Positions 27,075 to 41,303 of a stretch of DNA of 64,000 nt are shown here, piece after piece. This stretch comes from Alphaproteobacteria bacterium (GTDB lineage Bacteria > Pseudomonadota > Alphaproteobacteria > SP197). How positions within the stretch are numbered: the first letter of the stretch is position 1; the number at the start of each line of letters is the position of its first letter. The notes beneath the pieces are model-generated. The model was not told the DNA's origin. It worked only from the letters and a program-made list of their open reading frames with translations, and made no database searches. The stretch spans positions 154,983 to 218,982 of the forward strand of contig CBDCRU010000001.1 of NCBI GenBank assembly GCA_965221115.1, written 5' to 3'. The translations under genes were made by a program, and so were the position numbers.

Positions 27075-27923
27075 TCATCTGGTTCGACGAACAGGGCCCG
27101 CCCTGTCGTTCTCGCGGTGCATCAGGAAAACCGAGATCAGGATGAGCGTGATCGAGATGATGACGATGATCGTGCCGACCGCATTGATTTCCGGCGTGAT
27201 GCCGCGGCGGATGACCGACCAGATGTACATCGGCAGCGTGTTGTCACGGCCGGTCAGGAAGAACGTGACCGGAATCTCGTCGAACGAGAGCGTGAACGAG
27301 ATCAGCGAGGAACCGATGATGGCCGACCGGATGTTGGGCAGCGTGACATGCCGGAAGGTCTGCCATGGCCGGGCGCCGAGATCGGCTGAGGCCTCCTCGA
27401 TGCGCCTGTCGAACCGCTGGAGCCGGGCAAAGACATTGGTGACGACGATCGCCGTCAAGGCCGTCCCGTGGCCGATGATGACGGTCAGGATGCTGAGATC
27501 CATCCCCACCGAGCGGAAGAACGTCAGCATCGACACGCCAGTGATCAGACCTGGCAGGGTGATGGGAAGGATGACGAGTCGGCGAAACACCGTCTTTCCG
27601 GGAAAGTCGTGACGATCCAGGGCAAGTGCCGTCGGTATGCCGATGGCAAGGCAGATCATCACGGCCGACACGCCGACAAACACCGAGTTCCAGACAGCCG
27701 TCATGAGGTCGGGATTGCCCAGCGCCCGGGTGTACCAGTCGAAGGTGAAGTCCTCGAGCGGCAGGCGCGTGATGGGGTTCGAGTTGAAACTGAACACGAT
27801 CAGGGTGGCAATCGGAGTGTAGAGGAATGCAAGAACGCATAGCGCCGCGACACCCAGTCCCGTCGTGCCGGCATCGATCGGCTTCTTGCGTGCCCCGGCG
27901 TCATGCAGGGTGACGGTCGCCAT
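27075..27923 (-). CDS. polyamine-type ABC permease (PotC-like)
   Basis: FLYTPIATLIVFSFN, EEASADLGA and SFDE..VTFFL motifs. Confidence 0.9.
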   Translation of the reverse strand: MATVTLHDAGARKKPIDAGTTGLGVAALCVLAFLYTPIATLIVFSFNSNPITRLPLEDFTFDWYTRALGNPDLMTAVWNSVFVGVSAVMICLAIGIPTALALDRHDFPGKTVFRRLVILPITLPGLITGVSMLTFFRSVGMDLSILTVIIGHGTALTAIVVTNVFARLQRFDRRIEEASADLGARPWQTFRHVTLPNIRSAIIGSSLISFTLSFDEIPVTFFLTGRDNTLPMYIWSVIRRGITPEINAVGTIIVIISITLILISVFLMHRENDRAGPVRRTR

Positions 27924-27933
27924 CGGAGGTCTC

Positions 27934-28803
27934 CTAGCCGAGGTTGATCCGGCCGACCCGCTCCAGCTTGTCGGACGCCGTGATGATGCCGAGAACGATG
28001 ATGAGGAGGACGACACCCAGCGCCGACCCCAGGGGCCAGTTCATCGCCATGCCGAACTGCGTCGCGACGACATTGGCGATCATGTTGGAATAGGGACCGC
28101 CGACGAGGATGGGCGAGATGAAGTCACCGATCGAAAGCCCGAACGTGAAGGTGAATCCGGCCAGGACGCCAGGCATCGAGAGTGGCAGCGTGATCTTGCG
28201 GAATGTCGTGAAACGCGGAGCGCCGAGGTCCTTCGAGGCCTCGATGAGACTCACCGGGATCTTCTCGAGGGAGGCGTAGATCGGCATCACCATGAAGGGC
28301 GTGAAGATGTAGGCCATGGTCACCACCATCGCGCCCTGATTGTAGAGGAAGATGGTGGAGGGCTCGTTGATGACCCCGATCCACATGAGAAAGGAGTTGA
28401 GGATGCCCTCGCTGCCGAGGATCGTCTTCCAGGTATAGGCCCGAAGCAGGTAGCTCACCCACAGCGGCACGATGGCCGCCGTGTAGAGGAAGAGGCGCAG
28501 CCGGTTGGAGCGCACCTTGAAGGCCAGGAAATAGGCGAGGGGGTAGCTCAGGAAGAACGCGGTGACGGACACCGCCAGCGCGATCCACAGGCTGCGCAGG
28601 AGCACTGTGAAGTACTGGGAATCCGCGATCAGCGTGATGTAGTTGCCGAACTGGAAGTCCGGCACGTGGAAGGGGAACTGGCGGGTATAGAAGCTGATCG
28701 CCAGCATCATGAGGTAGGGAACCAGCAGAACCGTGCCCCACCAGAGCGCCGGTCCGGTGAAGAGGGACCAGAAGTTCAGGATCTGTCTGGTGCGGGGCTT
28801 CAT
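27934..28803 (-). CDS. polyamine-type ABC permease (PotB-like)
   Basis: PLWVSYLLRAYTW, EASKDLGA and NWPLGSA motifs. Confidence 0.9.
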   Translation of the reverse strand: MKPRTRQILNFWSLFTGPALWWGTVLLVPYLMMLAISFYTRQFPFHVPDFQFGNYITLIADSQYFTVLLRSLWIALAVSVTAFFLSYPLAYFLAFKVRSNRLRLFLYTAAIVPLWVSYLLRAYTWKTILGSEGILNSFLMWIGVINEPSTIFLYNQGAMVVTMAYIFTPFMVMPIYASLEKIPVSLIEASKDLGAPRFTTFRKITLPLSMPGVLAGFTFTFGLSIGDFISPILVGGPYSNMIANVVATQFGMAMNWPLGSALGVVLLIIVLGIITASDKLERVGRINLG

Positions 28804-29924
28804 GCCGCGGCCTCTTCGGCCTTCATGGCGGCGACCTCTGCGGTGTCGAACAGTTTCAGTGCCTCGGGACTGACCGCGCAGATGACGGTGTCACCGACAC
28901 CCGGCAGGCCCGCCGCAGCGAGTTCGGTATCGAGCTGCCGGTGGACGATCACCGGCCTTTCGGCACCAACGTCGAGGTCGATGCGGACCATGTTGCCGCT
29001 GAAGAAGAGCTCCTTCACGGTTCCAGAAAACGTGCTGGAGTCCTCGCCGGCTGCGCTCTCCCGGGGTACCAGTCGGATCTTCTCCGGGCGCATGAACAGT
29101 GATCGCGTGCCGCTGTCACCGGTGTTGCGGTCGAGCCTGAGGGTCATGGAGCCCGCGCATGCCACGACATCGCCCCCGTCACGCCTGATGGTGGCAGGGA
29201 TCATGTTGGAGGCGCCGAGGAACTCGGCCACGTAGGCGGTCCGGGGATGATCGTAGAGATCTGTGGGGGTCCCGATCTGCTCGATGCGGCCCGCATGCAT
29301 CACCATGATGCGGTCCGACATGATCATCGCCTCGGTCTGGTCGTGGGTCACCATCACGAAGGTGATTCCCACCCGGTCGTGGATGTGACGCAGTTCCACC
29401 TGCATCGATTCCTTCAGCTTCGCGTCGAGTGCCGACATCGGTTCGTCAAGCAGCAGGATTCGTGGATTGTTGACGAGTGCGCGGGCGAGCGCCACCCGCT
29501 GCTGTTGGCCCACCGAGAGTTCCGACGGAAACCGTGCCCCCATGCCCGGGAGCTCGATCATGTCGAGCATGGCGCGAACCCTCTCGGTGGTCTGTGCCTT
29601 GCCGACGCCGGCAATCTTCAGCCCGTAGCCTATGTTCTCCTCGGCCGTCATGTGAGGGAACAGGGCAAAATCCTGGAACATCATGTTCACCGGACGGCTG
29701 TACGGCGGATCGTTCGTGACGTCCCGACCGTCGAGCATGACCGATCCGGCGTCGGGATACTCGAATCCGCCGATCATGCGCAGTGTCGTCGTCTTGCCGC
29801 AGCCCGAGGGACCGAGCATGGTCAGGTACTCACCCTCACGGATATCGAGCGAGAGATTGTCGACCGCCACAATGCCGCCCCGGAAGGTCTTGGAGAGGCG
29901 ATGGAGCTCCAGGATGCTGGTCAT
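28800..29924 (-). CDS. polyamine-type ABC ATPase (PotA-like)
   Basis: GPSGCGKTT, LSVGQQQR and LLLDEP motifs. Confidence 0.92.
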   Translation of the reverse strand: MTSILELHRLSKTFRGGIVAVDNLSLDIREGEYLTMLGPSGCGKTTTLRMIGGFEYPDAGSVMLDGRDVTNDPPYSRPVNMMFQDFALFPHMTAEENIGYGLKIAGVGKAQTTERVRAMLDMIELPGMGARFPSELSVGQQQRVALARALVNNPRILLLDEPMSALDAKLKESMQVELRHIHDRVGITFVMVTHDQTEAMIMSDRIMVMHAGRIEQIGTPTDLYDHPRTAYVAEFLGASNMIPATIRRDGGDVVACAGSMTLRLDRNTGDSGTRSLFMRPEKIRLVPRESAAGEDSSTFSGTVKELFFSGNMVRIDLDVGAERPVIVHRQLDTELAAAGLPGVGDTVICAVSPEALKLFDTAEVAAMKAEEAAA

Positions 29925-29946
29925 GTCACATGTTTCGCGTCATCGC

Positions 29947-29979
29947 GCGGCCGGCCCCCTCGACTAGGAGGCCGGCCGC
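29947..29979 (-). terminator. intergenic stem-loop after the SBP gene
   Basis: Inverted repeat GCGGCCGGCC...GGCCGGCCGC between SBP and ATPase genes. Confidence 0.45.
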
Positions 29980-29998
29980 CGCTGCCACGGACTGTCGG

Positions 29999-31054
29999 TT
30001 ACTGGGCCGCCTTGATGGCGTTCCAGGTGTTGATGTAGGCGTCGACCCGTGCCGGCTCCTCCCACAGGACAAGCCCGTCGATGTACTTGAAGTCTGCCTG
30101 GTTGAGCGCCTCGAAGGTCGCTTCATCGAGGCATTCGCGAAGCACGACGGGATTTGATCCGGAATAGCCGGTCACGCCGACAACGCCGCACTGGCCACCG
30201 GACGACGTCGCGTAGTCGAGCCATGCGTAAGCGCATTCAGCATTCGGCGAACCCTTGACGATCTGCCATGCATCGGCCCAGCCATCGGCCTTCTCGACCG
30301 GAATGAACTCGACCATCTCGATACCCTGTCCGGCCAGCAACGAAGACTGGTATCCGCCCCAGGTGTTGGAAATCGCGACCTCGCCGTTGGCATAGAGGTT
30401 CACGAGTTCGCCCGCAGTCGACCAGAACTTGCGGATGTGGGGCTTCAGGGCGATGAGCTTGTCGCGCACCGCGGCCAGCTGATCATCGGAGAGGTCGTAG
30501 ACATTGACGTCAGTGCCGAACAGCAGGCGGGCGACGATGTAGATGTTGGTCTTGTCGTCCCAGAGGCTGATTGCGCCTGACAGGGACTCATCCTCCCAGA
30601 AGGAGGCGATGCTGTCGGGCGCCTGGTCGAACCGGTCCGTCCGATACATGAACGGGATCGACCCCCACGTGAAGGGAACGCCGTAGACCCCGCCCTCGTA
30701 GTTGACGCCGACATGGTTGCGGAACTGTTCGTAGATGTTGTCCCACTGCCCGATGCGGCTGACATCGATTTCCTCGACGAGCCCCGCCTTCATCAGGATC
30801 GTGGTGGTGTCAACCGATGGCGAGACAAGGTCGTAGACTCCGCCGCCCCCGGCGAGCTTGGCCGGGAACTCGTCGTTGGAGCCGACATAGGTCGGCGTCA
30901 CCGCGCATCCCGTGGCCTCGGTGAACGGTTCGACAAAGCTGGGATCGGTGTAACCTTCCCAGGTCAGGACATTGAGTTCGCCTTCCGCATGGGCCGATGC
31001 CGTCAAGCCGATGACAAGGGCCGCGGCCGCGCGCTTGATGTTGATCACTTTCAT
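29999..31054 (-). CDS. polyamine-type ABC substrate-binding protein (PotD-like)
   Basis: Signal peptide; LNVLTWEGY, YDLVSPS and YGVPFTWG motifs. Confidence 0.9.
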   Translation of the reverse strand: MKVINIKRAAAALVIGLTASAHAEGELNVLTWEGYTDPSFVEPFTEATGCAVTPTYVGSNDEFPAKLAGGGGVYDLVSPSVDTTTILMKAGLVEEIDVSRIGQWDNIYEQFRNHVGVNYEGGVYGVPFTWGSIPFMYRTDRFDQAPDSIASFWEDESLSGAISLWDDKTNIYIVARLLFGTDVNVYDLSDDQLAAVRDKLIALKPHIRKFWSTAGELVNLYANGEVAISNTWGGYQSSLLAGQGIEMVEFIPVEKADGWADAWQIVKGSPNAECAYAWLDYATSSGGQCGVVGVTGYSGSNPVVLRECLDEATFEALNQADFKYIDGLVLWEEPARVDAYINTWNAIKAAQ

Positions 31055-31371
31055 GGGTCTTGAGTCTCCTCCACTTTCTGAAGTGTCCGGGCTGCCGTAG
31101 CGGCAGCCGCAGGACCCGCCCTTGTTGCAGGGCAGGGTGTTGTACCACCAAAGTGGGCGGAACGATACGTCGCCGCGCGTGCGGCGTCTTGAGAAATGCC
31201 GGCAGACCTTCCGGAGTCTCCTGGTTCGGACAAGGTGACTGACCGCCCCCGACGCGCGGCTTGCCGGATGCTCCTTCAGGCCTTATGGATCGGCGGCGTC
31301 AAGTGCCGCCTCGTGTTCCGTCACCCGGGCTTTGGCGCTAGACTCGAAACCGGCGTGTGCGGATGGATTCG

Positions 31372-31704
31372 ATGCCGAAAATGACCTTCATCGTGCAAAG
31401 CGGGGAGCGCATCGAGATCGATGCGCCCGAAGGACTCTCTCTTCTCGAGATCGCACGGCAGTACGATATCGACATCGAGGGCGCCTGCGAGGGATCGCTG
31501 GCCTGTTCCACGTGCCATGTCATCGTCGATGCGGAGGACTTCGAGCGTCTCGAGGATCCCAGTGAGGACGAGGAGGACATGCTCGATCTTGCCTTCGGCC
31601 TGACCCGCACCTCCCGTCTGGGATGCCAGATCCTGCTGACAGAGGAACTCGACGGACTGACCGTGACGTTGCCCCATGAAACCCGCAACATGCTCTTCGA
31701 GTGA
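31372..31704 (+). CDS. fdx: adrenodoxin-type [2Fe-2S] ferredoxin
   Basis: [14 protein letters not shown]...[20 protein letters not shown]. Confidence 0.95.
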
Positions 31705-31714
31705 TGTGCCGGCC

Positions 31715-32854
31715 ATGATTCCGGACCGCTCCACGGGCGGCCGTGCCATTGTCGCCATGTCCGGAGGGGTCGACAGTTCGGTGGTCGCTGCCCTCCTCAA
31801 GGATGAGGGTCACGAGACCATCGGCGTGACGCTGCAACTCTACGATCAAGGCAGGACGGCCTCCCGTCCCGGCGCCTGCTGTGCCGGAGCCGACATCCGC
31901 GACGCCCGCCGCGTGGCGGCGATGCTCGACATCCCGCACTATGTTCTCGACTACCAGGCGCGGTTCCGCGCATCCGTGATGGAGGCGTTCGCCGACAGCT
32001 ACCTTGCCGGTGAAACGCCGGTCCCGTGTGTGCTCTGCAACCAGGGAGTCAAGTTCTCCGACCTGCTGACGACGGCGCGGGATCTCGGTGGAGACTGCCT
32101 GGCTACCGGGCACTACGTTCGGCGCATCGAGGGGCGCGACGGACCGGAACTTCACTGCGGTGCCGAAACCGGCCGCGACCAGAGCTACTTTCTCTTCCGA
32201 ACAACCCGGCACCAGTTGCAGGGCCTGAGGTTTCCTCTGGGCGGCATGACCAAGGACGAGGTGCGGGCCTGCGCCAGGCGGTTCGGACTGCCGGTGTCTG
32301 CCAAGCCGGACAGTCAGGACATCTGCTTCGTGCCGCAGGGCCGATACACGGATGTCGTCGACCGTCTGCGCCCCGGCGCCATGGAGGCGGGCACGATCGT
32401 CGATCTTTCCGGCCGCATTCTGGGTCACCATGACGGAATCGCCCACTACACTGTCGGACAGAGACGGCGGCTCGGCATCGCGACGGGAGAACCCCTCTTT
32501 GTCGTTCGCCTGGACCCGGAACGCCGCCAGGTGGTCGTAGGTCCCCGCGAGGCCCTTCATTCGACGGCCCTTACCATGCGCGACGTCAACTGGCTCGGTC
32601 GGGGAGCGTTGCCGCCGGACGGTGTGGAATGCCGTGTCCAGTTGCGCTCGCGCCAGGAACACCTGCCGGCGCGCGTGCTGCCCCTCGGAGACGATCGCGC
32701 CAGGGTCGAGCTCGCCCGGCCCGCCGAGGCCATCGCTCCGGGCCAAGCCTGTGTCATGTATGACGGCAGCCGCCTTCTCGGCGGCGGCTGGATCGAAAGA
32801 GAGACAGATCAGGGTTCCATGCCACGGCGCGTGAGCGCCGATTTCTGCTCCTGA
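31715..32854 (+). CDS. mnmA: tRNA 2-thiouridylase
   Basis: [37 protein letters not shown] and YTVGQRR motifs. Confidence 0.97.
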
Positions 32855-32869
32855 CGGGAGGACCCGGAC

Positions 32870-33724
32870 ATGGTGGTCACGGGCAACATCCGGCCTCTGG
32901 CCGGTCATATCGGTGCGGAGATCTCCGGGATCGATCTCAGGCATCTTGATGACGGCAAGGTCGCCGCCCTGCGCGAGGCATGGCTCGAACACAAGGTCCT
33001 GTTCTTTCCACGCCAGGAGTTGTCGGCCGATGAACTGGTGCGTGTGGCGTCCTGCTTTGGCGAGATTGACCCGCCGCACCCAGGGCTTGAACGCCACCCC
33101 GACAATCCCGCCGTCATGATCGCGGCGAGCCGCAAGGGTGATGGTGGCGGCAAGTTCAACGCCATCTGGCACAGCGACGTCACATTTGACGAGACGCCGC
33201 CGGCGGCCTCGATGCTGCGGGCCGAAACCCTGCCCCCTGTCGGCGGCGACACGCTCTTCACGTCGATGGAGGCGGCCTTCGACGCGCTGTCAGAGCGCCT
33301 GAAGACGGCAATCGAGGGTCTGGAGGCATTCCACGACGGCATTCCCAACTTCACTCCCTACCTTCTCGATCCGGGTACGCCGGACGGACCCCGACGTCTG
33401 GAGAATCTCAAGCGCGAACACACGGGATGCGTGCATCCGGTGGTGGTGCGCCACCCCGAGACGGGCCGCCGGTCGCTCTTCGTCAATCGGGCCTTCACCC
33501 AGCGGATTCTTGGATTGCCGGACATCGAGAGTCGCGGATTGCTGAACCTCCTGATCGAGCACTGCGAACAGGCTTCGTTCCAGATGCGCTGGTCCTGGTC
33601 GAAAGGCGATGTCGCGCTCTGGGACAACCGCTGCACCCTGCACTACGCCGCTTTCGACTATGGTCGCCACGACCGGATCATGCATCGCGTGACGCTGAGA
33701 GGGTCACGCCCTCTCGCTGCCTGA
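32870..33724 (+). CDS. TauD/TfdA-family Fe(II)/2-oxoglutarate dioxygenase
   Basis: WHSDVTF, GGDTLF, HPVVVRHPETGR and WDNRCTLH motifs. Confidence 0.93.
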   Translation: MVVTGNIRPLAGHIGAEISGIDLRHLDDGKVAALREAWLEHKVLFFPRQELSADELVRVASCFGEIDPPHPGLERHPDNPAVMIAASRKGDGGGKFNAIWHSDVTFDETPPAASMLRAETLPPVGGDTLFTSMEAAFDALSERLKTAIEGLEAFHDGIPNFTPYLLDPGTPDGPRRLENLKREHTGCVHPVVVRHPETGRRSLFVNRAFTQRILGLPDIESRGLLNLLIEHCEQASFQMRWSWSKGDVALWDNRCTLHYAAFDYGRHDRIMHRVTLRGSRPLAA

Positions 33725-33729
33725 CACTG

Positions 33730-34554
33730 TCAGCCCGGGCCGGGAGGCAGCGGATCGCCGCTGGCGGCCAGGGTGCCCTCGTCATCGTGCCTTTCATCTC
33801 CCGTCAGCGCCGGGCAGAAGACGGACAGCAGGTGAAGATCGCTCAGGGCATGCATGCTGTGGCGGTCTTCGGGACCGACGCAGTACATCATTCCCGGTTC
33901 CATGCTCCAGGTCTCTCCGGAGCCAAGGTCCGTTACTTCTCCCGTGCCATCGAGAACGTAGTTCGCCTCCCAGTGGTGCTTGTACCACAGGACGTTGCGA
34001 TTGCCGGCCGCGAGGCGGACGTCACTGAGCGAGAACCCGACACAATCCTCTCGCAACAGCATGCGCACCGTCGTTGCGCTGCCACCGGCGACCACGAACC
34101 GGCGCCCCTGGCCAACGAGTTCGTCGACGGTCCTCACGAACATGCATTCCCTGCCTTCGGGAACGGGACCCGTCGGCGGGTAGGCGCCGTCGCTGTCGTG
34201 TGCCTCGTCTCCAACAAGGGGCGGATTGAAGACACTGACGACGTGGAGCGAATCATCGGGATCGACCAGGTGCCGGTCGGTCGGTCCGACCGTGTAGAGG
34301 GTGCCTGGCGCCAGGGTCCAGGTACGGTCCCGTTCAAGGTCTCGCAACGAGCCTGTGCCGGCGACAATGTAGTTCGCTTCCCAGTGGTGCCTGTACCACA
34401 GGACGCTGGACATGCCGCCTGCGACCCGCACGTCCGACATGGTGAAGCCCAGGCCGTCGGGGATGGTGAGAAAGCGCGTCGAACGGGCCCTGCCTTCGCT
34501 CAGGACCTTTTCGGCGCCGGCACGGCGGCGCTCGTCAAGGGTGCGGATGAACAT
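33730..34554 (-). CDS. tandem double ectoine synthase (EctC)-like cupin protein
   Basis: Two 137-aa repeats, each MFxRT...LWYxHHWEANY...PG..Y.VG..DRH...SVF.P.L.G.E.HD..G. Confidence 0.85.
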   Translation of the reverse strand: MFIRTLDERRRAGAEKVLSEGRARSTRFLTIPDGLGFTMSDVRVAGGMSSVLWYRHHWEANYIVAGTGSLRDLERDRTWTLAPGTLYTVGPTDRHLVDPDDSLHVVSVFNPPLVGDEAHDSDGAYPPTGPVPEGRECMFVRTVDELVGQGRRFVVAGGSATTVRMLLREDCVGFSLSDVRLAAGNRNVLWYKHHWEANYVLDGTGEVTDLGSGETWSMEPGMMYCVGPEDRHSMHALSDLHLLSVFCPALTGDERHDDEGTLAASGDPLPPGPG

Positions 34555-34555
34555 G

Positions 34556-35728
34556 TCAGCTTCCTTTTCGGGGATCGGGTTTGTCGGGCATGGCGGTGCT
34601 GCCGGCGATGCGTCGCGCGAGATACTGGCAGAACTCGAAGTTGGGACGTTCCAGGTAACTCAGGTGCCCGGGACGCGCCAGACCGGACCTGGTGCCGTTG
34701 AACACGGCTTCGGTCCCCACCCGGTCCTCCTCGTTGACGGCATCGAGAATCCTCTTGGCCTCGGCGACGTGTTCGGCCCCTCGCGGATCGTTGATGAAAT
34801 CGGGCGCCATGCCGCCGCCGTAGAGAATCCTTACCCTGCCCGCGCCTTCCGGCTGCAGTGACAGATACCAGAAGTATCCCGGAGTCAGGGTGATCATGTG
34901 GCTGGGATAGATGGTGATCAGCGCCGTGGTCCGACGCCACTCGCCTTCAAGATAGGTGCAGTCTGGGTGGGCGTTGGCAAGGGGAAAGTCGGATTCCTTG
35001 GTGATCCAGTGATAGTTGAACACCGCGCCTCCCGCCGGCATTTCCATCTCCCCGATCTTCGACTGGTTGCCGATGGTTCCGCGGTGGAGCTGGAAGAGGT
35101 GGTAGCTTTCCATGAAATTCTCGGCGAGAATCTTCCAGTTCGTCTCCCAGACATGCTCTTCGCGGAAGGTCTCGGTGTAGTCGGCGAAGCGATAGCGGCC
35201 CGTGACGATCTCCCCCACCGGCCGAAACAGGACTTCCGGCGGCGGAATGTCGGGATCGAGCGTGACGTAGATCCAACCGTCCCAGACATCGCAGCGTACG
35301 CGGGTGAGGCAGTAGTCACCCTTGTCGAAGGCCGGGCTTTCGTCCATCCACGGGGCATGGCGCAAGCGGCCGTCGAGGCCGTAGGACCACGCATGGTAGG
35401 GGCAGGTGATGACCTTGCGGTTGCCGCGTCCGGAAAGGAGCAGGCTCATCCGGTGCAGGCAGACGTTGGCGAAGGCCCTGACCTCTCCGGCATGGTCGCG
35501 GACGATGAAGATCGGCTCATCGACGAGCCTGAAGGTGAGATAGTCGCCCCCTTCCGGAATGGCATCGGCCCGACCGGCACAGATCCACTCCCTGGAGAAG
35601 ACCCGTTCCTTTTCCAGGGCCAGGAACGCTTCGCTGGAATAGATGCCGGGAGGCGCCGCCCGCGCTTCAGCGAAGGGACGTTCCGCGTTCGCCTTCAGTT
35701 CGCCAAGGAGTGTCTCGATTGCTGCCAT
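34556..35728 (-). CDS. Rieske non-heme iron oxygenase alpha subunit (resembles choline monooxygenase / betaine demethylase group)
   Basis: Rieske motif NVCLHR...CPYHAW; mononuclear Fe site NWKILAENFMESYH...LH; EED. Confidence 0.9.
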   Translation of the reverse strand: MAAIETLLGELKANAERPFAEARAAPPGIYSSEAFLALEKERVFSREWICAGRADAIPEGGDYLTFRLVDEPIFIVRDHAGEVRAFANVCLHRMSLLLSGRGNRKVITCPYHAWSYGLDGRLRHAPWMDESPAFDKGDYCLTRVRCDVWDGWIYVTLDPDIPPPEVLFRPVGEIVTGRYRFADYTETFREEHVWETNWKILAENFMESYHLFQLHRGTIGNQSKIGEMEMPAGGAVFNYHWITKESDFPLANAHPDCTYLEGEWRRTTALITIYPSHMITLTPGYFWYLSLQPEGAGRVRILYGGGMAPDFINDPRGAEHVAEAKRILDAVNEEDRVGTEAVFNGTRSGLARPGHLSYLERPNFEFCQYLARRIAGSTAMPDKPDPRKGS

Positions 35729-36030
35729 CTGACTGAGAACAGTGCCACTGCCAACTGGCATCATTGCCAAATCGCGGCGACCGGACAACCACGCGCCACG
35801 CAATGGGCCTGTGCGCTCAGCTCTCAAGGCTCCGGACGACCAGCCTGATGAAGAGGCTTCGGCATTGAGGACAAGGCCTCTCGCAGCTGCGCCTGGTGTT
35901 TCCGAGTCCGCGGGGATTCCCGCGGGCCGGGAGATCACGTGTGAGCCGATCGAAAAGTTGTGCGAGAGCAGCGCAGGCTCCATGATCGAAGGCGTCCGGT
36001 GCCGTACGACCGGAACGTCCGGGGAGAGCT

Positions 36031-36902: not shown

Positions 36903-37598
36903 ATGCTGAGTGACGACCTCAAGGCCCGGCTGTCGGCGGTATCGACGGCCACCATCACGAGCCAGCTGCAACAGCGCGGCCTGCAGAACTGCTTTCTCAA
37001 CGGCCTCAGGCCGCTTCATGAGAACCAGCGCATGGTGGGCGCCGCGCGGACCCTGCGCTACCTGCCGGTCCGTCCTGATCTCTACGACCTGCTGGATGGC
37101 GATCCGCAACCGGACGCGGTCGAGGCGATCGAGCCGGGCGAGGTTCTGGTGATCGATGCCCGCGGCGAGCCCGACGCCGGAACGATCGGCGACATCTACG
37201 CCTCCCGCGTGCAGCAGCGCGGCGGGGCCGGGGTGGTCACGGACGGTGCGCTGCGCGACACCCCGGCCATCGAGGCGCTGGGTTTCGCCGTCTACCACCG
37301 CTCGTCCAATGCGGCGCTGCTCAGCCGCCGGCATGTCGCCGTCGACTCCCAGCTTCCCATCGCCTGCGCCGGCGCGACGGTGATGCCCGGCGACGTGATG
37401 GTGGGAGATGGCGAGGGTGCCGTGGTGATCCCGCGGGCCATGGCCGACGAGATTGCCGATGCCTCCATGACCATGGAAATCGAGGAGGAGTTCGCGCTCA
37501 AGCGCATTGCCGAGGGTGCGGCGGTCGACCGCTACTTTCCGCTTGCCGACGAGGCCCGGGCCGAGTTCGAGGCCTGGCTTGCCGAACGGAAGGCGTGA
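36903..37598 (+). CDS. RraA-family protein / HMG-CHA aldolase-like
   Basis: PGEVLVIDARG, GDI, GVVTDGALRD and PGDVMVGDGEGAVVIP motifs. Confidence 0.88.
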   Translation: MLSDDLKARLSAVSTATITSQLQQRGLQNCFLNGLRPLHENQRMVGAARTLRYLPVRPDLYDLLDGDPQPDAVEAIEPGEVLVIDARGEPDAGTIGDIYASRVQQRGGAGVVTDGALRDTPAIEALGFAVYHRSSNAALLSRRHVAVDSQLPIACAGATVMPGDVMVGDGEGAVVIPRAMADEIADASMTMEIEEEFALKRIAEGAAVDRYFPLADEARAEFEAWLAERKA

Positions 37599-37993
37599 CG
37601 ATCATGCCGCGTCGTTCGATTCACATCGAGTCCCTGAGCCATTTCACGCCGATCCCCGTGGCAACGCGTATCGGTCCGCTGGTGACCTGCAGCATCACCG
37701 CGCCCTTCAATCCGGGCACGCGCGAGCTTCCGCCGGACATCGGCGGTCAGATCGCCAATCTCTTCCATCATGTCGGCGCCATGCTCGCCGAGGCGGGAGG
37801 CGCCTGGGACAACGTCGCGAAGATGACCTTCTATGCCCCCGATCCCTCGGAGATCTTCGGGGCGCTCAACGCGGCGTGGGAGGAGCATTTCCCGGAACCG
37901 GCCTCTCGCCCGTCGCGCCATACCATGGTGGTGCCCGATGACAGGAGCGGCATCCGGGTCTGCTGCGACTTCATCGCCTTGATCGAGGGCTGA
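37595..37993 (+). CDS. RidA/YjgF-family protein
   Basis: PIPVATRIG, AGGAWDNVAKMTFY and WEEHFP...RPSRHT; GTGA-coupled to the RraA gene. Confidence 0.85.
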   Translation: MTIMPRRSIHIESLSHFTPIPVATRIGPLVTCSITAPFNPGTRELPPDIGGQIANLFHHVGAMLAEAGGAWDNVAKMTFYAPDPSEIFGALNAAWEEHFPEPASRPSRHTMVVPDDRSGIRVCCDFIALIEG

Positions 37994-37999
37994 TCGCCG

Positions 38000-38797
38000 T
38001 CAATCGGTGAAACTCACCTGGATCTGTCCCAGCAGGCCGAAGTCCGCCGTCACCGCGTTGCCGGCCGCGACGGGTCTGGCGGCGATGAAGGAGCCTGAGA
38101 GAACCACATGTCCCGGCTCCATGACGACGCCGAAGCTGGCCAGCTTGCGTACAAGCCAGGCGACGGCGTTGACCGGGTTGTCCATCACGGCCGCGCCCGT
38201 ACCGGACGCCACTGCCTCGCCGTCGATGAAGAGCGTGCCTTTGATTTGACTCGGATCGACCTCGTTCAACGCCGCCCGTCCTTCGCCGACCATCACGAAG
38301 CCACACGATGCGGCATCGGCGATGCTGTCGATCACGGCGCCTTCGGGGCTGTCATAGGTAAAGCGACTGTCCACGAGTTCGATGGCGGGTGCGATGAAGT
38401 CCGTGGCAGCCAACACGTCTGCGGCACCGACGGCAGGACCTGCCAGTCGTTGCTTCAGCACGAAGGCGATCTCGATTTCGATCCAGGGTCGGTTGAGCGT
38501 GGCCATGGAGACTCGTGCGCCGTCATCGAGGAACCAGTCGTCAAACAGCGTTCCGTAGTCTGGTTCCGTCGCGCCGAAGGCCTCGCGCATGGCGGCTGAG
38601 GTGTAGCCGATCTTGTGGCCCATGATCGCCCGACCGTCCGCGACCTTCATGTCGGTGACAAGCTGACCGATCGCATAGGCGTCCTCGATCGAGGCGCCGG
38701 GCCATGTCGCCGTGACCGGCTCGATCCACTGGCGCGTGCGCTCGGCCCGGTAGAGCGCTGCGGCGGCGGCGTGCCGCTGATCGTCGTTCATGGCCAT
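38000..38797 (-). CDS. 2-keto-4-pentenoate / 2-oxo-hept-enedioate hydratase (MhpD/HpaH family)
   Basis: GHKIGYTS, EPDYG, IEIEIAF, IELVDSR, IADAAS and VLSGSF motifs. Confidence 0.88.
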   Translation of the reverse strand: MAMNDDQRHAAAAALYRAERTRQWIEPVTATWPGASIEDAYAIGQLVTDMKVADGRAIMGHKIGYTSAAMREAFGATEPDYGTLFDDWFLDDGARVSMATLNRPWIEIEIAFVLKQRLAGPAVGAADVLAATDFIAPAIELVDSRFTYDSPEGAVIDSIADAASCGFVMVGEGRAALNEVDPSQIKGTLFIDGEAVASGTGAAVMDNPVNAVAWLVRKLASFGVVMEPGHVVLSGSFIAARPVAAGNAVTADFGLLGQIQVSFTD

Positions 38798-38800
38798 GGC

Positions 38801-40288
38801 TCAATGCCGGCGTCGCGGTGTGAGCGGAAACGAGGCAAAGCGCGTCTCGGTGTAGAACTCGCGGCTGTAGCCGCCCCCCTCGCGTCCGTGGCCGCTGCCC
38901 TTCATGCCGCCGAACGGTTGGCGCAGGTCGCGCGAGAAGCCTGAATTGATCCAGATCATCGCCGTTTCCAGGCGGTGAGCCACGTCGTGCGCAGTCTGCT
39001 GGCTCCCGGTCCAGATGTAGCCCGCCAGGCCGTAGACCGAGTCGTTGGCAAGCCGGAGCGCGTGGTCCGCATCGTCGAAGGGCATCACGGCCGCAACGGG
39101 TCCGAAGATCTCCTCCCGGCAGATGCGCGCGTCGTTCCCGACGTCCACGACCGCCGTGGGCGCAATGAAGTACCCGGTGTCGAGACCGTCCGGGCGGCCT
39201 CCGCCGAACAGGATCCGGCCTTCCTCGCGCGCGAGATCGAGATAGCCCATGACCCGGTCATACTGGCCCTTCGAGACGAGAGGCCCGAGGCGCGTTGCGG
39301 GGTCGAACGGGTCGCCGGCCTTCCATGTCGCCGCCTCCGCCTCGAAGCGTTCGAGGAATTCATCGTAGATCGGCCGCTCTGCCAGGATGCGCGAGCCCGC
39401 GACGCAGGACTGGCCCGACGTGCCGAAGATGGCGGCGGCGGCCTCGGGAACCGCGCGCTCGAGGTCGGCGTCGGCGAAGATGATGTTGGCCGACTTGCCG
39501 CCGAGTTCGAAGGACGTGCGCTTGAGAGACGACGCCACGCGTTGCGAGATGTCACGCGCGGTGGCGGGGGAGCCCGTGAACGAGACTCCGCAGACGTCCG
39601 GATGTTCCACCAGGGGAGCGCCCGCTTCGGCGCCGAAGCCGTGCACGACGTTGTAGACGCCTGCGGGAAGACCGGCCTCCTCGAAGATCTCGCACAGGAT
39701 GGGCATCGAGAGCGGCGCCAGTTCGGAGGGCTTGTGGACCGCCGAGTTGCCGTAGGCGAGGCACGGCGCCATCTTCCAGGTCGAGAGCATGAAGGGCCCG
39801 TTCCACGGCGTGATGAGCGCGTAGACGCCAACCGGGTCGAGCATGGTGTAGGTCACCAGCGTGTCGTCCCGATTGAACGACTGGTTGCCGACGAGTTCCT
39901 GCTCTTGTGCGAAGAAACGGAAGTTCTGGGCGGACCGTGCCACGTGGAAGTCGGGACCCTCCGAGGGCGGCCCCACCGGTTCGCCCATCTCGGCCGTCTG
40001 GACTGTCACGATCTCGTCGGAGCGTCTCTCGATCAGATCGGCCACCCGGAACAGTACTTCGCGCCGGAACGACGGCCTGCCTCGGGACCACGCTCCGTCC
40101 TCGAAGGACTCTCGCGCTGCGCGCACGGCACGTTCGACATCCCTGGCATCGCCACGGGCCGCCCGGGCCGTGACCGCTTCCGTGGCCGGATTGACGACAT
40201 CGAGCGTCGCGCCTGACTCGGAATCCTCGAAACGGCCACCGACGTAATGGCGCGCTGGCCGAATGGACGTGGGCGCGACTATGGGCAT
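38801..40288 (-). CDS. aldehyde dehydrogenase (hydroxymuconic semialdehyde dehydrogenase-like)
   Basis: NFRFFA, ITPWN, FELGGKS, GQSCVAGSR, EEIFGP and RDLRQPFGGMK motifs. Confidence 0.88.
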   Translation of the reverse strand: MPIVAPTSIRPARHYVGGRFEDSESGATLDVVNPATEAVTARAARGDARDVERAVRAARESFEDGAWSRGRPSFRREVLFRVADLIERRSDEIVTVQTAEMGEPVGPPSEGPDFHVARSAQNFRFFAQEQELVGNQSFNRDDTLVTYTMLDPVGVYALITPWNGPFMLSTWKMAPCLAYGNSAVHKPSELAPLSMPILCEIFEEAGLPAGVYNVVHGFGAEAGAPLVEHPDVCGVSFTGSPATARDISQRVASSLKRTSFELGGKSANIIFADADLERAVPEAAAAIFGTSGQSCVAGSRILAERPIYDEFLERFEAEAATWKAGDPFDPATRLGPLVSKGQYDRVMGYLDLAREEGRILFGGGRPDGLDTGYFIAPTAVVDVGNDARICREEIFGPVAAVMPFDDADHALRLANDSVYGLAGYIWTGSQQTAHDVAHRLETAMIWINSGFSRDLRQPFGGMKGSGHGREGGGYSREFYTETRFASFPLTPRRRH

Positions 40289-40427
40289 GATGGGAGACTC
40301 CGTGGCGGCGCGTTCGCGACAGGGATGGACACTGACTTATCAGGGATGAAGCAACGGCGTCCATGACAAACAGGCCCCGGGCCGTCATGGCCGGTGTCAG
40401 ACGCGGCGGCGTGGCGTGGAGGTACAC

Positions 40428-41303
40428 ATGGTTCAGGTGACGGAACTCGGTTATCTCGGTCTGGGCGTCAGCGACCTCGATGCCTGGACACACATGGCGA
40501 CAGAGGTTGTGGGCCTGGAGCTGGTCGAGGGCGAAACTGCCGGGACCTGCTACCTGCGCATGGACTACTGGCACCACCGCATCCGCCTGATCGCCGACGG
40601 CAGCGACGACCTCGCCTATCTCGGGCTGCGCGTTGCGGGCCGTGCCGAGTTCGAGGCCATGGGCGCAAGGCTCGAGGAAGCAGGCCTTGCCGTCCGTGTC
40701 GGTTCGTCCGAGGAAGCGGCCGAACGCCGCGTTCAGGCCGTCATGAAGCTCGAGGATCCCTCGGGCGTGCCGGTCGAGATCTTCCACGGCCCCGAGGTCC
40801 ACCGTCACCGGCCGTTCCATCCGGGCAGGCCCATGCACGGCCGTTTCAGGACCGGCGCGGCAGGCCTGGGCCACTGCGTGCTGCACCAGGGCGATGTCGA
40901 GGCCGCGTGGCGGTTCTACACGTTGCTCGGCATGCGTGGCGGGGCGGAGTATCCCTCGAAAACCGGCTTCTTCGATGGTGCGCCCACCTTCATGCACTGC
41001 AACGAGCGCGATCACAGCATCGCCTTCGGCATGGGCAGCCGGGACAAGCGCGTCAATCACATCATGGTGGAGTCCGACAACATGGACGATGTCGGCCTGA
41101 CCTACGAGCTGGTGCGCGCAAACGGCATCCCGGTCGAGCTGCAGCCCGGCCGTCACGCCAACGACGAGATGTACTCCTTCTACTTCCGCAATCCTTCAGG
41201 CTGGATGATCGAATACGGTTGGGGCGCCCGGCCGGCGTCGCATCAGTCCGAGTACTATCCCCGGGACATTCCCGATCATGCTCCTGAAGCAGGAGGCTTC
41301 TGA
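40428..41303 (+). CDS. extradiol ring-cleavage dioxygenase (NahC/BphC type, VOC fold)
   Basis: ELGYLG, RMDYWHHRI, PFHPGRPMHG.F.TG..GLGHC, FMHCNERDHSIAFG, NHIMVE, HAND and PSGWMIEYGW motifs. Confidence 0.92.
   Translation: MVQVTELGYLGLGVSDLDAWTHMATEVVGLELVEGETAGTCYLRMDYWHHRIRLIADGSDDLAYLGLRVAGRAEFEAMGARLEEAGLAVRVGSSEEAAERRVQAVMKLEDPSGVPVEIFHGPEVHRHRPFHPGRPMHGRFRTGAAGLGHCVLHQGDVEAAWRFYTLLGMRGGAEYPSKTGFFDGAPTFMHCNERDHSIAFGMGSRDKRVNHIMVESDNMDDVGLTYELVRANGIPVELQPGRHANDEMYSFYFRNPSGWMIEYGWGARPASHQSEYYPRDIPDHAPEAGGF

Follow-up and report, generated by a model that had tools for sequence, protein, structure and literature searches.

What does a protein that resembles ectoine synthase do in a bacterium that lacks the other genes for ectoine synthesis, when two units of the enzyme are joined in one chain? 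This question is raised by a gene at 33730..34554 on the minus strand of a 64,000-nucleotide stretch of an alphaproteobacterial genome (hereafter "the window"; positions 154,983 to 218,982 of contig CBDCRU010000001.1). The gene encodes 274 amino acids plus a stop codon, with two stretches that match ectoine synthase (EctC), and we will call it the double-EctC gene. We propose that its product is a single-chain, heterodimer-like iron cupin that takes part in the catabolism of nitrogen compounds and not in ectoine synthesis. For this explanation as a whole, we see about even chances. The part that concerns the architecture, and that denies that the protein is a bona fide ectoine synthase, is very probably correct. 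That the protein is a hydrolase or cyclase of C=N bonds in amine catabolism is something that we infer, with somewhat less than even confidence. What is new here is a fused and differentiated double EctC-type bicupin, from a large and unstudied family that is mislabelled as ectoine synthase in the databases.

Two EctC-type units in one chain

The N-terminal and more variable unit ("N-type"; residues 1-137, 34144..34554 on the minus strand) matches the EctC of P. lautus (structure 5ONM) with E = 6.7e-23, and the C-terminal and more conserved unit ("C-type"; residues 138-274, 33733..34143 on the same strand) matches it with E = 1.7e-25. Against solved EctC chains, each half gives E values of 1e-21 to 1e-25. 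Both PF06339 (Ectoine_synth; 228.1 bits, E = 3.5e-68, cut-off 27) and NF009806 from NCBIfam (235.2 bits, cut-off 128) match the 274-residue open reading frame (ORF) in two stretches, one per half, as the initial annotation of this DNA had expected for the Pfam model. That annotation had also described an ORF with two EctC-like units 411 nt apart, and the positions agree: the ORF begins with MFIRT, and exactly 411 nt downstream, at nt 34143 (residue 138), comes MFVRT.

The two 137-residue halves are identical at 65 of 135 residues (48%; E = 2e-46). At the nucleotide level, identity is just 53% overall and falls to 40% at the third positions of codons, which makes the duplication an old and not a recent one. 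A 37-nt segment is identical between the halves at 35 of 37 positions (our re-count gave the same number as was first reported), and it encodes the family's most conserved motif, VLWY(R/K)HHWEANY.

A fusion of this kind could be an error in the assembly, and this had been raised at the outset. A sponge-metagenome contig from a sequencing run of another study (X7, record 31) is unbroken over 33787-35825, which spans both the domain junction and the boundary to the upstream gene; the X7 run carries a relative that is about 97% identical over the whole gene pair. The double-unit fusion is also kept in 80 of 80 related loci. (With one genome per species, we confirmed 109 loci and kept 80 for analysis.) Because the independent contig is unbroken and the fusion is found in all of the related loci, we conclude that the fusion is real.

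The double form is not an oddity of one genome, but the rule in a large and conserved family. A protein search found 571 relatives, and the best 120 of these are nearly all about 275 amino acids long. We counted units with a hidden Markov model that was built from 89 single-domain relatives, and we scanned the window protein and 121 database proteins with it (n = 122): 121 of the 122 have two EctC units and one, P0002, has three. Identity between the window protein and 82 aligned family members is 45-95%, and the motif columns (LWYKHHWEANY-type, in both units) are 95-100% conserved across the family. Double-EctC genes are present in the genomes of at least 109 species, and these belong to uncultured Alphaproteobacteria, Stellaceae, Dongiaceae, Rokubacteria/Methylomirabilota, Binatia, Gammaproteobacteria, and Entotheonella. 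Two cultured isolates are among the carriers, Dongia deserti (SYSU D60009) and Taklimakanibacter lacteus (SYSU D60012). The double proteins are labelled "ectoine synthase" or "L-ectoine synthase" in the source databases. A search for look-alikes with a language model gave no functional lead: every hit was a "putative ectoine synthase" cluster, and in 25 of the 30 the length was about 275 residues.

P0002 is a protein of 414 amino acids from a 1438-nt contig, with three consecutive EctC-type units; it is the sole triple among the 122. We also considered fusions to further domains. One longer relative (P0121, 505 amino acids) has an extra 229 N-terminal residues with no second Pfam family in the precomputed list, and our reading is that this extension is a putative over-extended ORF call in GC-rich DNA.

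Within the window organism's GTDB family, the gene is found in 31 of 33 genomes and in 5 of 5 genera, with 1-7 matches per genome. Twenty public sequencing runs from seven studies contain all or part of the stretch, most of them labelled as sponge metagenomes, and one run (X1), which may be the source sample, contains near-identical pieces of it. This group of organisms is sponge-dwelling, and the double-EctC gene is a core gene of this sponge-associated alphaproteobacterial family.

Some genomes have head-to-tail arrays of double-EctC genes: five genes in locus L021, four each in L026 and L041, and two each in L019, L020, and L037. (The larger arrays are at L021:1187-5189, L026:26-3379, and L041:10001-13390, and another, with 7 matches, is at 26679-32803 of contig C95 in genome G002.) The carriers of the arrays are Saanich-Inlet-type Rhodospirillaceae metagenome-assembled genomes (MAGs), a Caspian MAG, and relatives in the window organism's own family.

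We modelled the window protein with AlphaFold2, using 83 family sequences, and compared the model with solved structures using Foldseek and VIA-align. Confidence in the model is high (mean predicted local distance difference test score, or pLDDT, of 95.2; predicted TM score, or pTM, of 0.93). A single barrel superimposes on the EctC of S. alaskensis (5BXX) with a TM score of 0.94, a root-mean-square deviation (rmsd) of 1.5 Å, and 36% identity. The whole model matches quercetin dioxygenase (8HFB_A; Z = 22.6, rmsd 2.8 Å over 240 residues), DR1152 (1SFN_A; Z = 22.4), and ureidoglycine aminohydrolase (4E2Q; Z = 21.8). The initial annotation had described a single-chain pseudo-dimer, and a predicted model with this pTM that superimposes on bicupins over both barrels supports it: the protein would be a single-chain bicupin, with its two barrels packed as in known bicupins.

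A domain tree of 331 units places the N-halves and the C-halves mostly in separate clades, with single-domain proteins (130-145 amino acids) interleaved with both. Support at several deep nodes is low (0.13-0.6), and it is the broad separation of N- and C-halves that is supported. We tried to root the tree on canonical EctC. The outgroup singles, of 128-131 amino acids, proved to be orphan-like (with Ser at position 38 and no Trp21, in EctC numbering), and the root is a more distant group of orphans, that is, of EctC-type proteins whose genes lie outside ect clusters. In three genomes of genus g5 from the window organism's GTDB family (G030-G032), the C-like and the N-like unit are each encoded by a single-domain gene of their own, and the two genes are on different contigs (such as G030:C46:23411-23818 and G030:C1:200576-200947). 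This suggests an unfused heterodimer state. Given the separation in the tree and these unfused units, we best understand the fused protein as a heterodimer in covalent form, made of two old paralogues. The best explanation of the predicted fold is that two anciently diverged EctC-type barrels imitate the head-to-tail dimer of EctC as a fused heterodimer.

Active sites and ectoine synthesis

We mapped residues by aligning both units to P. lautus EctC (5ONM) and took the roles of the residues from PMC6344544. For the family-wide counts, we used 120 double proteins and scored their N- and C-halves separately. The iron ligands Glu57, Tyr84, and His92 correspond to E59, Y87, and H95 in unit 1 and to E196, Y224, and H232 in unit 2, so each unit has a full Glu/Tyr/His triad, in agreement with the metal-ligand positions that were first pointed out. 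In the family, the metal Glu and the metal His are each present in 120/120 N-halves and 120/120 C-halves, and the metal Tyr is present in 114/120 N-halves and 116/120 C-halves. Arg25, Tyr52, Ser23, and Phe106 have the equivalents R27/R164, Y54/Y191, S25/T162, and F109/F246. The equivalent of Tyr52 is found in 119/120 N-halves and 120/120 C-halves; the Arg that anchors the carboxylate is found in 100/120 and 120/120. The C-terminal lid motif is retained in both halves of the window protein. By these counts, both sites are under selection across the family.

Other residues of ectoine synthase have changed. Trp21 is fully conserved in 437 cluster-encoded EctCs and is also conserved in 145 orphans, sometimes shifted by two residues, while Asn38 and Thr40 have been assigned to a proton relay (PMC6344544). 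In the window protein, neither N-terminal segment has a Trp, at position 21 or close to it, and both halves have Ser instead of Asn38 and Val instead of Thr40. Across the family, any Trp in the first 30 columns is rare (4/120 N-halves and 2/120 C-halves), Asn at position 38 is present in 33/120 N-halves and 0/120 C-halves, and Thr at position 40 is present in 0/120 of either half (Val is there in 118/120 C-halves). The family also has its own invariant residues beside the metal Glu, with Trp in place of Val56 and, in 119/120 N-halves and 120/120 C-halves, Asn in place of Val59. At the position of Cys104 there is Ser (S107/S244). The altered signatures that had been noticed in this protein (WY-HHWEANY for WYKNHVEAVY and, in unit 2, FCP...HDDEGTL) are therefore real, and they are traits of the family.

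The two sites have diverged from each other. Mean column entropy is 1.08 bits for the C-half versus 1.43 bits for the N-half, and 40 columns of the C-half are at least 95% conserved, versus 31 columns of the N-half. Variation at the positions equivalent to Asn38 and Thr40 is confined to the N-barrel. Together with the counts for the Arg anchor, this bears out the earlier idea of two differentiated sites.

The genome itself does not encode the rest of the pathway. The assembly has 4.44 Mb in 2 contigs, and its completeness, judged by markers, is 100%. In searches of the whole genome, PF06339 matched nothing but these two units, the EctA model (TIGR02406) had zero matches, and the best match to the EctB model (TIGR02407) was an ordinary class-III aminotransferase with 172 bits, compared to a cut-off of 552. 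So the absence of ectAB, which had been proposed from the window alone, holds for the complete genome. There is also no aspartokinase, ectR, ectD, or osmolyte-synthesis gene among the neighbours in the window. With its location outside an ect cluster in a genome without ectAB, the window protein belongs among the orphan EctC-type proteins.

Might the protein nevertheless be a working ectoine synthase? It could salvage N-gamma-acetyl-diaminobutyrate (N-gamma-acetyl-DABA) from the sponge host, from neighbours, or from non-orthologous enzymes, with ectoine serving as an osmoprotectant. The scores of both halves are well beyond the curated EctC cut-offs, and both keep the iron triad (including the equivalent of Glu57) as well as the equivalents of Arg25, Tyr52, Ser23, and Phe106. 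Furthermore, a solitary EctC from P. syringae was reported to complement a Halomonas ectC mutant, so orphans can retain ectoine synthase activity (PMC5924519). However, neither half has Trp21, and both have other residues in place of Asn38 and Thr40, the genome has no match to EctA and none to EctB above the cut-off, the neighbouring genes encode oxygenases and amine dehydrogenases instead of osmolyte synthesis, and arrays of 4-7 paralogues make little sense for a single salvage step. We consider this salvage to be very unlikely. That the substrate is something other than N-gamma-acetyl-DABA is a plausible inference from the loss of Trp21, the replacement of Asn38 and Thr40, and the catabolic neighbours.

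The changed residues could also indicate another kind of chemistry. The protein might be an isomerase or epimerase, a lyase that works by beta-elimination like the cupin dimethylsulfoniopropionate (DMSP) lyases, or a dioxygenase that acts on a product or substrate of the neighbouring oxidases, in which case its likeness to EctC would reflect descent only. The new invariant Trp and Asn (at the Val56 and Val59 positions) beside the metal Glu would fit with this, as would the variable neighbours and the diverse functions of the structural matches, which include quercetin dioxygenase, ureidoglycine aminohydrolase, oxalate decarboxylase, and the isomerase BacB. But the Glu/Tyr/His triad is described as special to EctC (PMC6344544), the lid motif and the carboxylate-anchoring Arg are kept, which points to EctC-like handling of the substrate, and identity to bicupins with other functions is only 10-17%. 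We think that such chemistry is unlikely.

Finally, the protein might not be an enzyme at all, but a bicupin that binds small molecules or metals, or has a role in storage or regulation. Non-enzymes are common among bicupins (seed storage proteins and pirin-like factors are examples), and such proteins are present among the structural matches; the high copy number in arrays would also fit. Against this, the metal triad and pocket residues are near-invariant in both barrels over a deep divergence, which is typical of catalysis, the gene lies in an operon position behind an oxygenase, and a Pfam scan found no DNA-binding or signal domains. A role without catalysis seems extremely unlikely to us.

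Neighbouring genes

Directly upstream of the double-EctC gene, on the same strand, is a gene for the alpha subunit of a Rieske non-haem-iron oxygenase (34556..35728, minus strand; PF00355 and PF00848). Its start is approximate, as the frame is open up to 36178. Its stop codon is 1 nt before the ATG of the double-EctC gene, so the two genes are probably translationally coupled and in one operon. The Rieske protein has about 390 residues, and there is no beta-subunit gene beside it. Its nearest solved chains are the carnitine monooxygenase CntA (6Y8J, 114 bits) and a stachydrine demethylase-type chain (3VCA, 98 bits). Its best NCBIfam match is GbcA (NF058607), with 126 bits, far below the cut-off of 670. 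The same arrangement, with this Rieske gene directly upstream on the same strand, recurs in 12 of 80 related loci (L011-L021 and L025), down to 65% identity.

Contigs from sponge metatranscriptomes (two libraries from one study) match 33778-33943 of the double-EctC gene with 0 differences, and in the same two libraries the junction with the Rieske gene is covered at 34541-34775 and 34456-34862. These contigs give a weak hint of transcription, as such libraries can hold DNA and a contig with two genes is not proof of one transcript. Stretches without RNA cover, such as 34084-34297, are uninformative about expression.

On the other side, a convergent gene (32870..33724, plus strand) for a 2-oxoglutarate dioxygenase of the TauD/TfdA family (PF02668, 223 bits) ends 5 nt from the stop codon of the double-EctC gene; it is present in 12 of the 80 related loci. 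Its protein scores 273 bits against the taurine dioxygenase model NF007104, below the cut-off of 313, and 210 bits against TauD (3PVJ). Farther along is a small ORF that resembles 2Fe-2S ferredoxins (31357..31704, plus strand), a label that comes from reading the translation and not from a family search. It has tblastn matches in 9 of the 80 loci, all from the close clade, and is a possible electron donor for the Rieske enzyme. This ORF shares 29 nt with the start of an MnmA-like ORF for a tRNA thiouridylase (together they span 31357-32854, and the MnmA-like label likewise comes from the translation instead of a family search). Both are syntenic with the EctC/Rieske pair in the close clade. 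A four-gene ABC importer on the minus strand (27075-31054; substrate-binding protein, ATPase, and two permeases) is syntenic in 9-10 close loci. Its layout, as judged from ORF order without a family search, is like that of spermidine/putrescine importers.

To the right of the Rieske gene are an RraA-like aldolase and a RidA homologue (36909-37993), which lie next to a meta-cleavage-type module at 38000-41303 with an HpcG/MhpD-family hydratase, an aldehyde dehydrogenase, and a BphC-like extradiol dioxygenase. (The hydratase has no Pfam match at E = 0.01, and it scores 178 bits against 2EB4.) Because the right-hand genes are syntenic only in the two closest loci, we do not count them as partners. 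A PhyH-family dioxygenase is also on this side. We considered it as a candidate for ectoine hydroxylase (EctD), but it was rejected by that model (24 bits, compared to a cut-off of 336).

The genome as a whole, at 4.4 Mb, has an exceptionally heavy load of genes for amine and betaine-type oxidation: 43 Rieske-domain matches, 78 DAO matches, and 21 M24 matches (creatinase/EutD-like). About a dozen of the DAO matches are frames of about 800 amino acids that are similar to dimethylglycine dehydrogenase. This load of amine- and betaine-oxidation genes fits with a sponge symbiont that lives on methylated amines from its host.

To look at the family more broadly, we scanned 258 genes at positions +/-1 and +/-2 with Pfam. 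(We dropped 8 near-duplicate loci, as well as L065, where no EctC gene was called.) The recurring families were FAD amine oxidoreductases of the DAO type (14 of the 258), Rieske proteins (8), TauD (5), GCV_T proteins of the dimethylglycine/sarcosine dehydrogenase type (4), AstE/AspA deacylases (4), amidases (2), the DHDPS family (2), RidA (2), and MttB (1). These families act on the C-N bonds of small amines or on their products, and none of them dominates.

Some individual loci are also suggestive of amine catabolism. A Rieske gene is nearby in three distant lineages (L075, L076, and L086), and in L086, from Entotheonella, a GbcA-like Rieske gene is directly downstream. In Dongia deserti, the double-EctC gene is flanked on both sides by genes that are similar to dimethylglycine dehydrogenase (805 and 812 amino acids). 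In Taklimakanibacter, it lies between an Opp-type ABC importer and an OYE/Fe-S flavoenzyme. The arrays in L041 and L037 have a DHDPS-family gene on one side and DAO and opine/sarcosine-oxidase-alpha-like genes on the other. The contig of L026 begins inside the array, so only the downstream DAO and oxidase-alpha-like genes are visible. We take the layout of these three arrays to resemble the clusters for D-hydroxyproline dehydrogenase and pyrroline-hydroxy-carboxylate deaminase.

Several observations weigh against our explanation, in addition to the activity of the P. syringae orphan. No single neighbour is conserved outside of the close clade, and even the commonest family, DAO, accounts for just 14 of the 258 genes. 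We also looked for a conserved operon partner across the family by all-against-all clustering of 3,882 flanking ORFs, and outside the close clade there was none. Apart from those of EctC, the biggest clusters were formed by ABC ATPases (18 loci), Rieske (15), and TauD (12); clusters 1, 2, and 4 are out-of-frame or antisense ORFs over the EctC gene itself. The gene calls in the related loci are crude GC3-based calls. With 43 Rieske and 78 DAO matches in the window genome, a Rieske neighbour by chance is not rare, and the apparent enrichment of amine-oxidising neighbours is modest. As for the Rieske partner, the matches to CntA and Stc2-type enzymes cover only its N-terminal ~220 residues, and dioxygenases of the biphenyl type score nearly as well, so "betaine-type" is a lead and not a membership. 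And the right-hand genes, with synteny limited to the two closest loci, point to aromatic meta-cleavage and not to amine catabolism.

Proposed activity and comparison with known proteins

If the double-EctC protein is a catabolic cupin, then Fe(II) would act as a Lewis acid that polarises the carbon of a C=O or C=N group adjacent to the carboxylate of an amino acid, and the conserved Arg would hold this carboxylate. Water would be added or removed across a C=N or amide carbon of a carboxylate-bearing nitrogen compound. This might open the ring of a cyclic amidine or imine, or carry out the reverse cyclisation, and the hydrolytic direction would be the more probable one. The enzyme would share a catabolic route with enzymes that oxidise C-N bonds, which here would be the coupled Rieske oxygenase of the carnitine/stachydrine type. 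The conserved C-barrel would provide the constant catalytic site and the variable N-barrel a diversified second site. The invariant Asn at the Val59 position might replace the lost role of Asn38, but this is a speculation from strand register.

There is a precedent for hydrolysis. The EctC of H. elongata hydrolyses homoectoine and DHMICA, and its reaction with ADPC and glutamine lies on the hydrolytic side (PMC5924519). Because it opens homoectoine and DHMICA, the EctC fold can run hydrolytically.

A special case of our proposal is that the protein opens the ring of ectoine or hydroxyectoine, as an alternative to the M24-type enzyme EutD/DoeA, and feeds a deacylase and a transaminase. The AstE/AspA deacylases, at 4 of the 258 neighbours, are in the family of the ectoine-pathway deacetylase. 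The genome has no EutD at the cut-off (the best match to TIGR02993 in the whole genome has 414 bits, compared to a cut-off of 613), ectoines are common in marine and soil settings, and the EctC fold does hydrolyse ectoine analogues (PMC5924519). However, ectoine itself is hardly hydrolysed by the H. elongata enzyme, at a rate described as negligible (PMC5924519), and the residues that contact the ring and methyl side of ectoine (Trp21 and Asn38) are the ones that have changed. Also, the association with deacylases is rare, and there is no ectoine transporter or EnuR-type regulator beside the gene (we did not search the whole genome for them). Canonical ectoine catabolism is not established for this genome either, with EutD below its cut-off and with EutE and the Ehu and Ueh transporters not included in our searches. 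We regard ring opening of ectoine itself as distinctly unlikely.

More tentatively, we suggest that the double-EctC proteins are a new catabolic class that arose from ectoine synthase, although we would not put this at even odds. As heterodimeric Fe(II) cupins in fused form, they would open cyclic amidine or imine carboxylates by hydrolysis, or close them, and these compounds would come from amine oxidases of the Rieske, DAO, and dimethylglycine dehydrogenase types. The invariant C-barrel would be catalytic and the fast-evolving N-barrel, with arrays of up to 5-7 genes, would tune the substrate range. If this is true, then ectoine producers in sponge, marine, or soil metagenomes cannot be recognised safely by ectC. 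EctC has been used as a diagnostic gene for ectoine producers (PMC5924519). Given the ectoine synthase label on a protein without three substrate-handling residues, in a genome without ectAB, our results suggest that ectoine potential is being over-called in these metagenomes.

The function of orphan EctC-type proteins has been stated to be unresolved (Czech et al. 2018, PMC5924519; Czech et al. 2019, PMC6344544). The double-EctC family offers some handles on this question: the two sites of the fused form can be told apart, paralogues occur in arrays, some carriers are in culture, and a Rieske partner is tightly coupled. And since the gene is near-universal in a sponge-associated family, its substrate may be a metabolite that is relevant to the symbiosis. 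We found no description of fused or tandem EctC in the literature, and the word "tandem" is absent from the available portion of PMC5924519, but the supplementary alignments of the orphan-EctC papers might contain family members.

How does the double-EctC protein compare with better known proteins? The classic bicupins (the quercetin dioxygenase YxaG of B. subtilis, 1Y3T/8HFB; ureidoglycine aminohydrolase, 4E2Q; YlbA/DR1152, 1RC6/1SFN; and oxalate decarboxylase) have the same mutual arrangement of two jelly-roll barrels in one chain, and they superimpose on the model with Z = 21-22.6 and rmsd of 2.5-3.1 Å over 213-241 residues. The metal ligands of classic bicupins are typically His/His/Glu/His, unlike the Glu/Tyr/His here. 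Their sequence identity to the double-EctC protein is only 12-17%. They come from a different cupin lineage, and the double-EctC protein arose by duplication within the EctC family. As for the partner enzyme, CntA, Stc2-type enzymes, and GbcA match its Rieske domain and the start of its catalytic domain, while its C-terminal substrate region is unmatched.

The metal centre and the carboxylate-binding side are common to the double-EctC protein and bona fide EctC, but Trp21, Asn38, and Thr40 are not. Bona fide EctC (EC 4.2.1.108; solved as 5ONM, 5ONN, and 5ONO from P. lautus and as 5BXX from S. alaskensis) is a homodimer of subunits of about 130 amino acids, has Val56 and Val59, and is expected to have ectA and ectB as partners; the double-EctC protein has its two units fused in a 274-residue chain, the family has Trp and Asn at those positions, and the genome lacks both partner genes and has catabolic oxidases as neighbours. 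The orphan EctC-type proteins are likewise encoded outside ect clusters in genomes without ectAB, and they often have Ser at the Cys104 position (PMC6344544), as the double-EctC protein does. But the orphans described in PMC5924519 and PMC6344544 are single-domain proteins and keep Trp21, sometimes shifted (PMC6344544), whereas the double-EctC proteins are fused and, as a family, have lost this residue.

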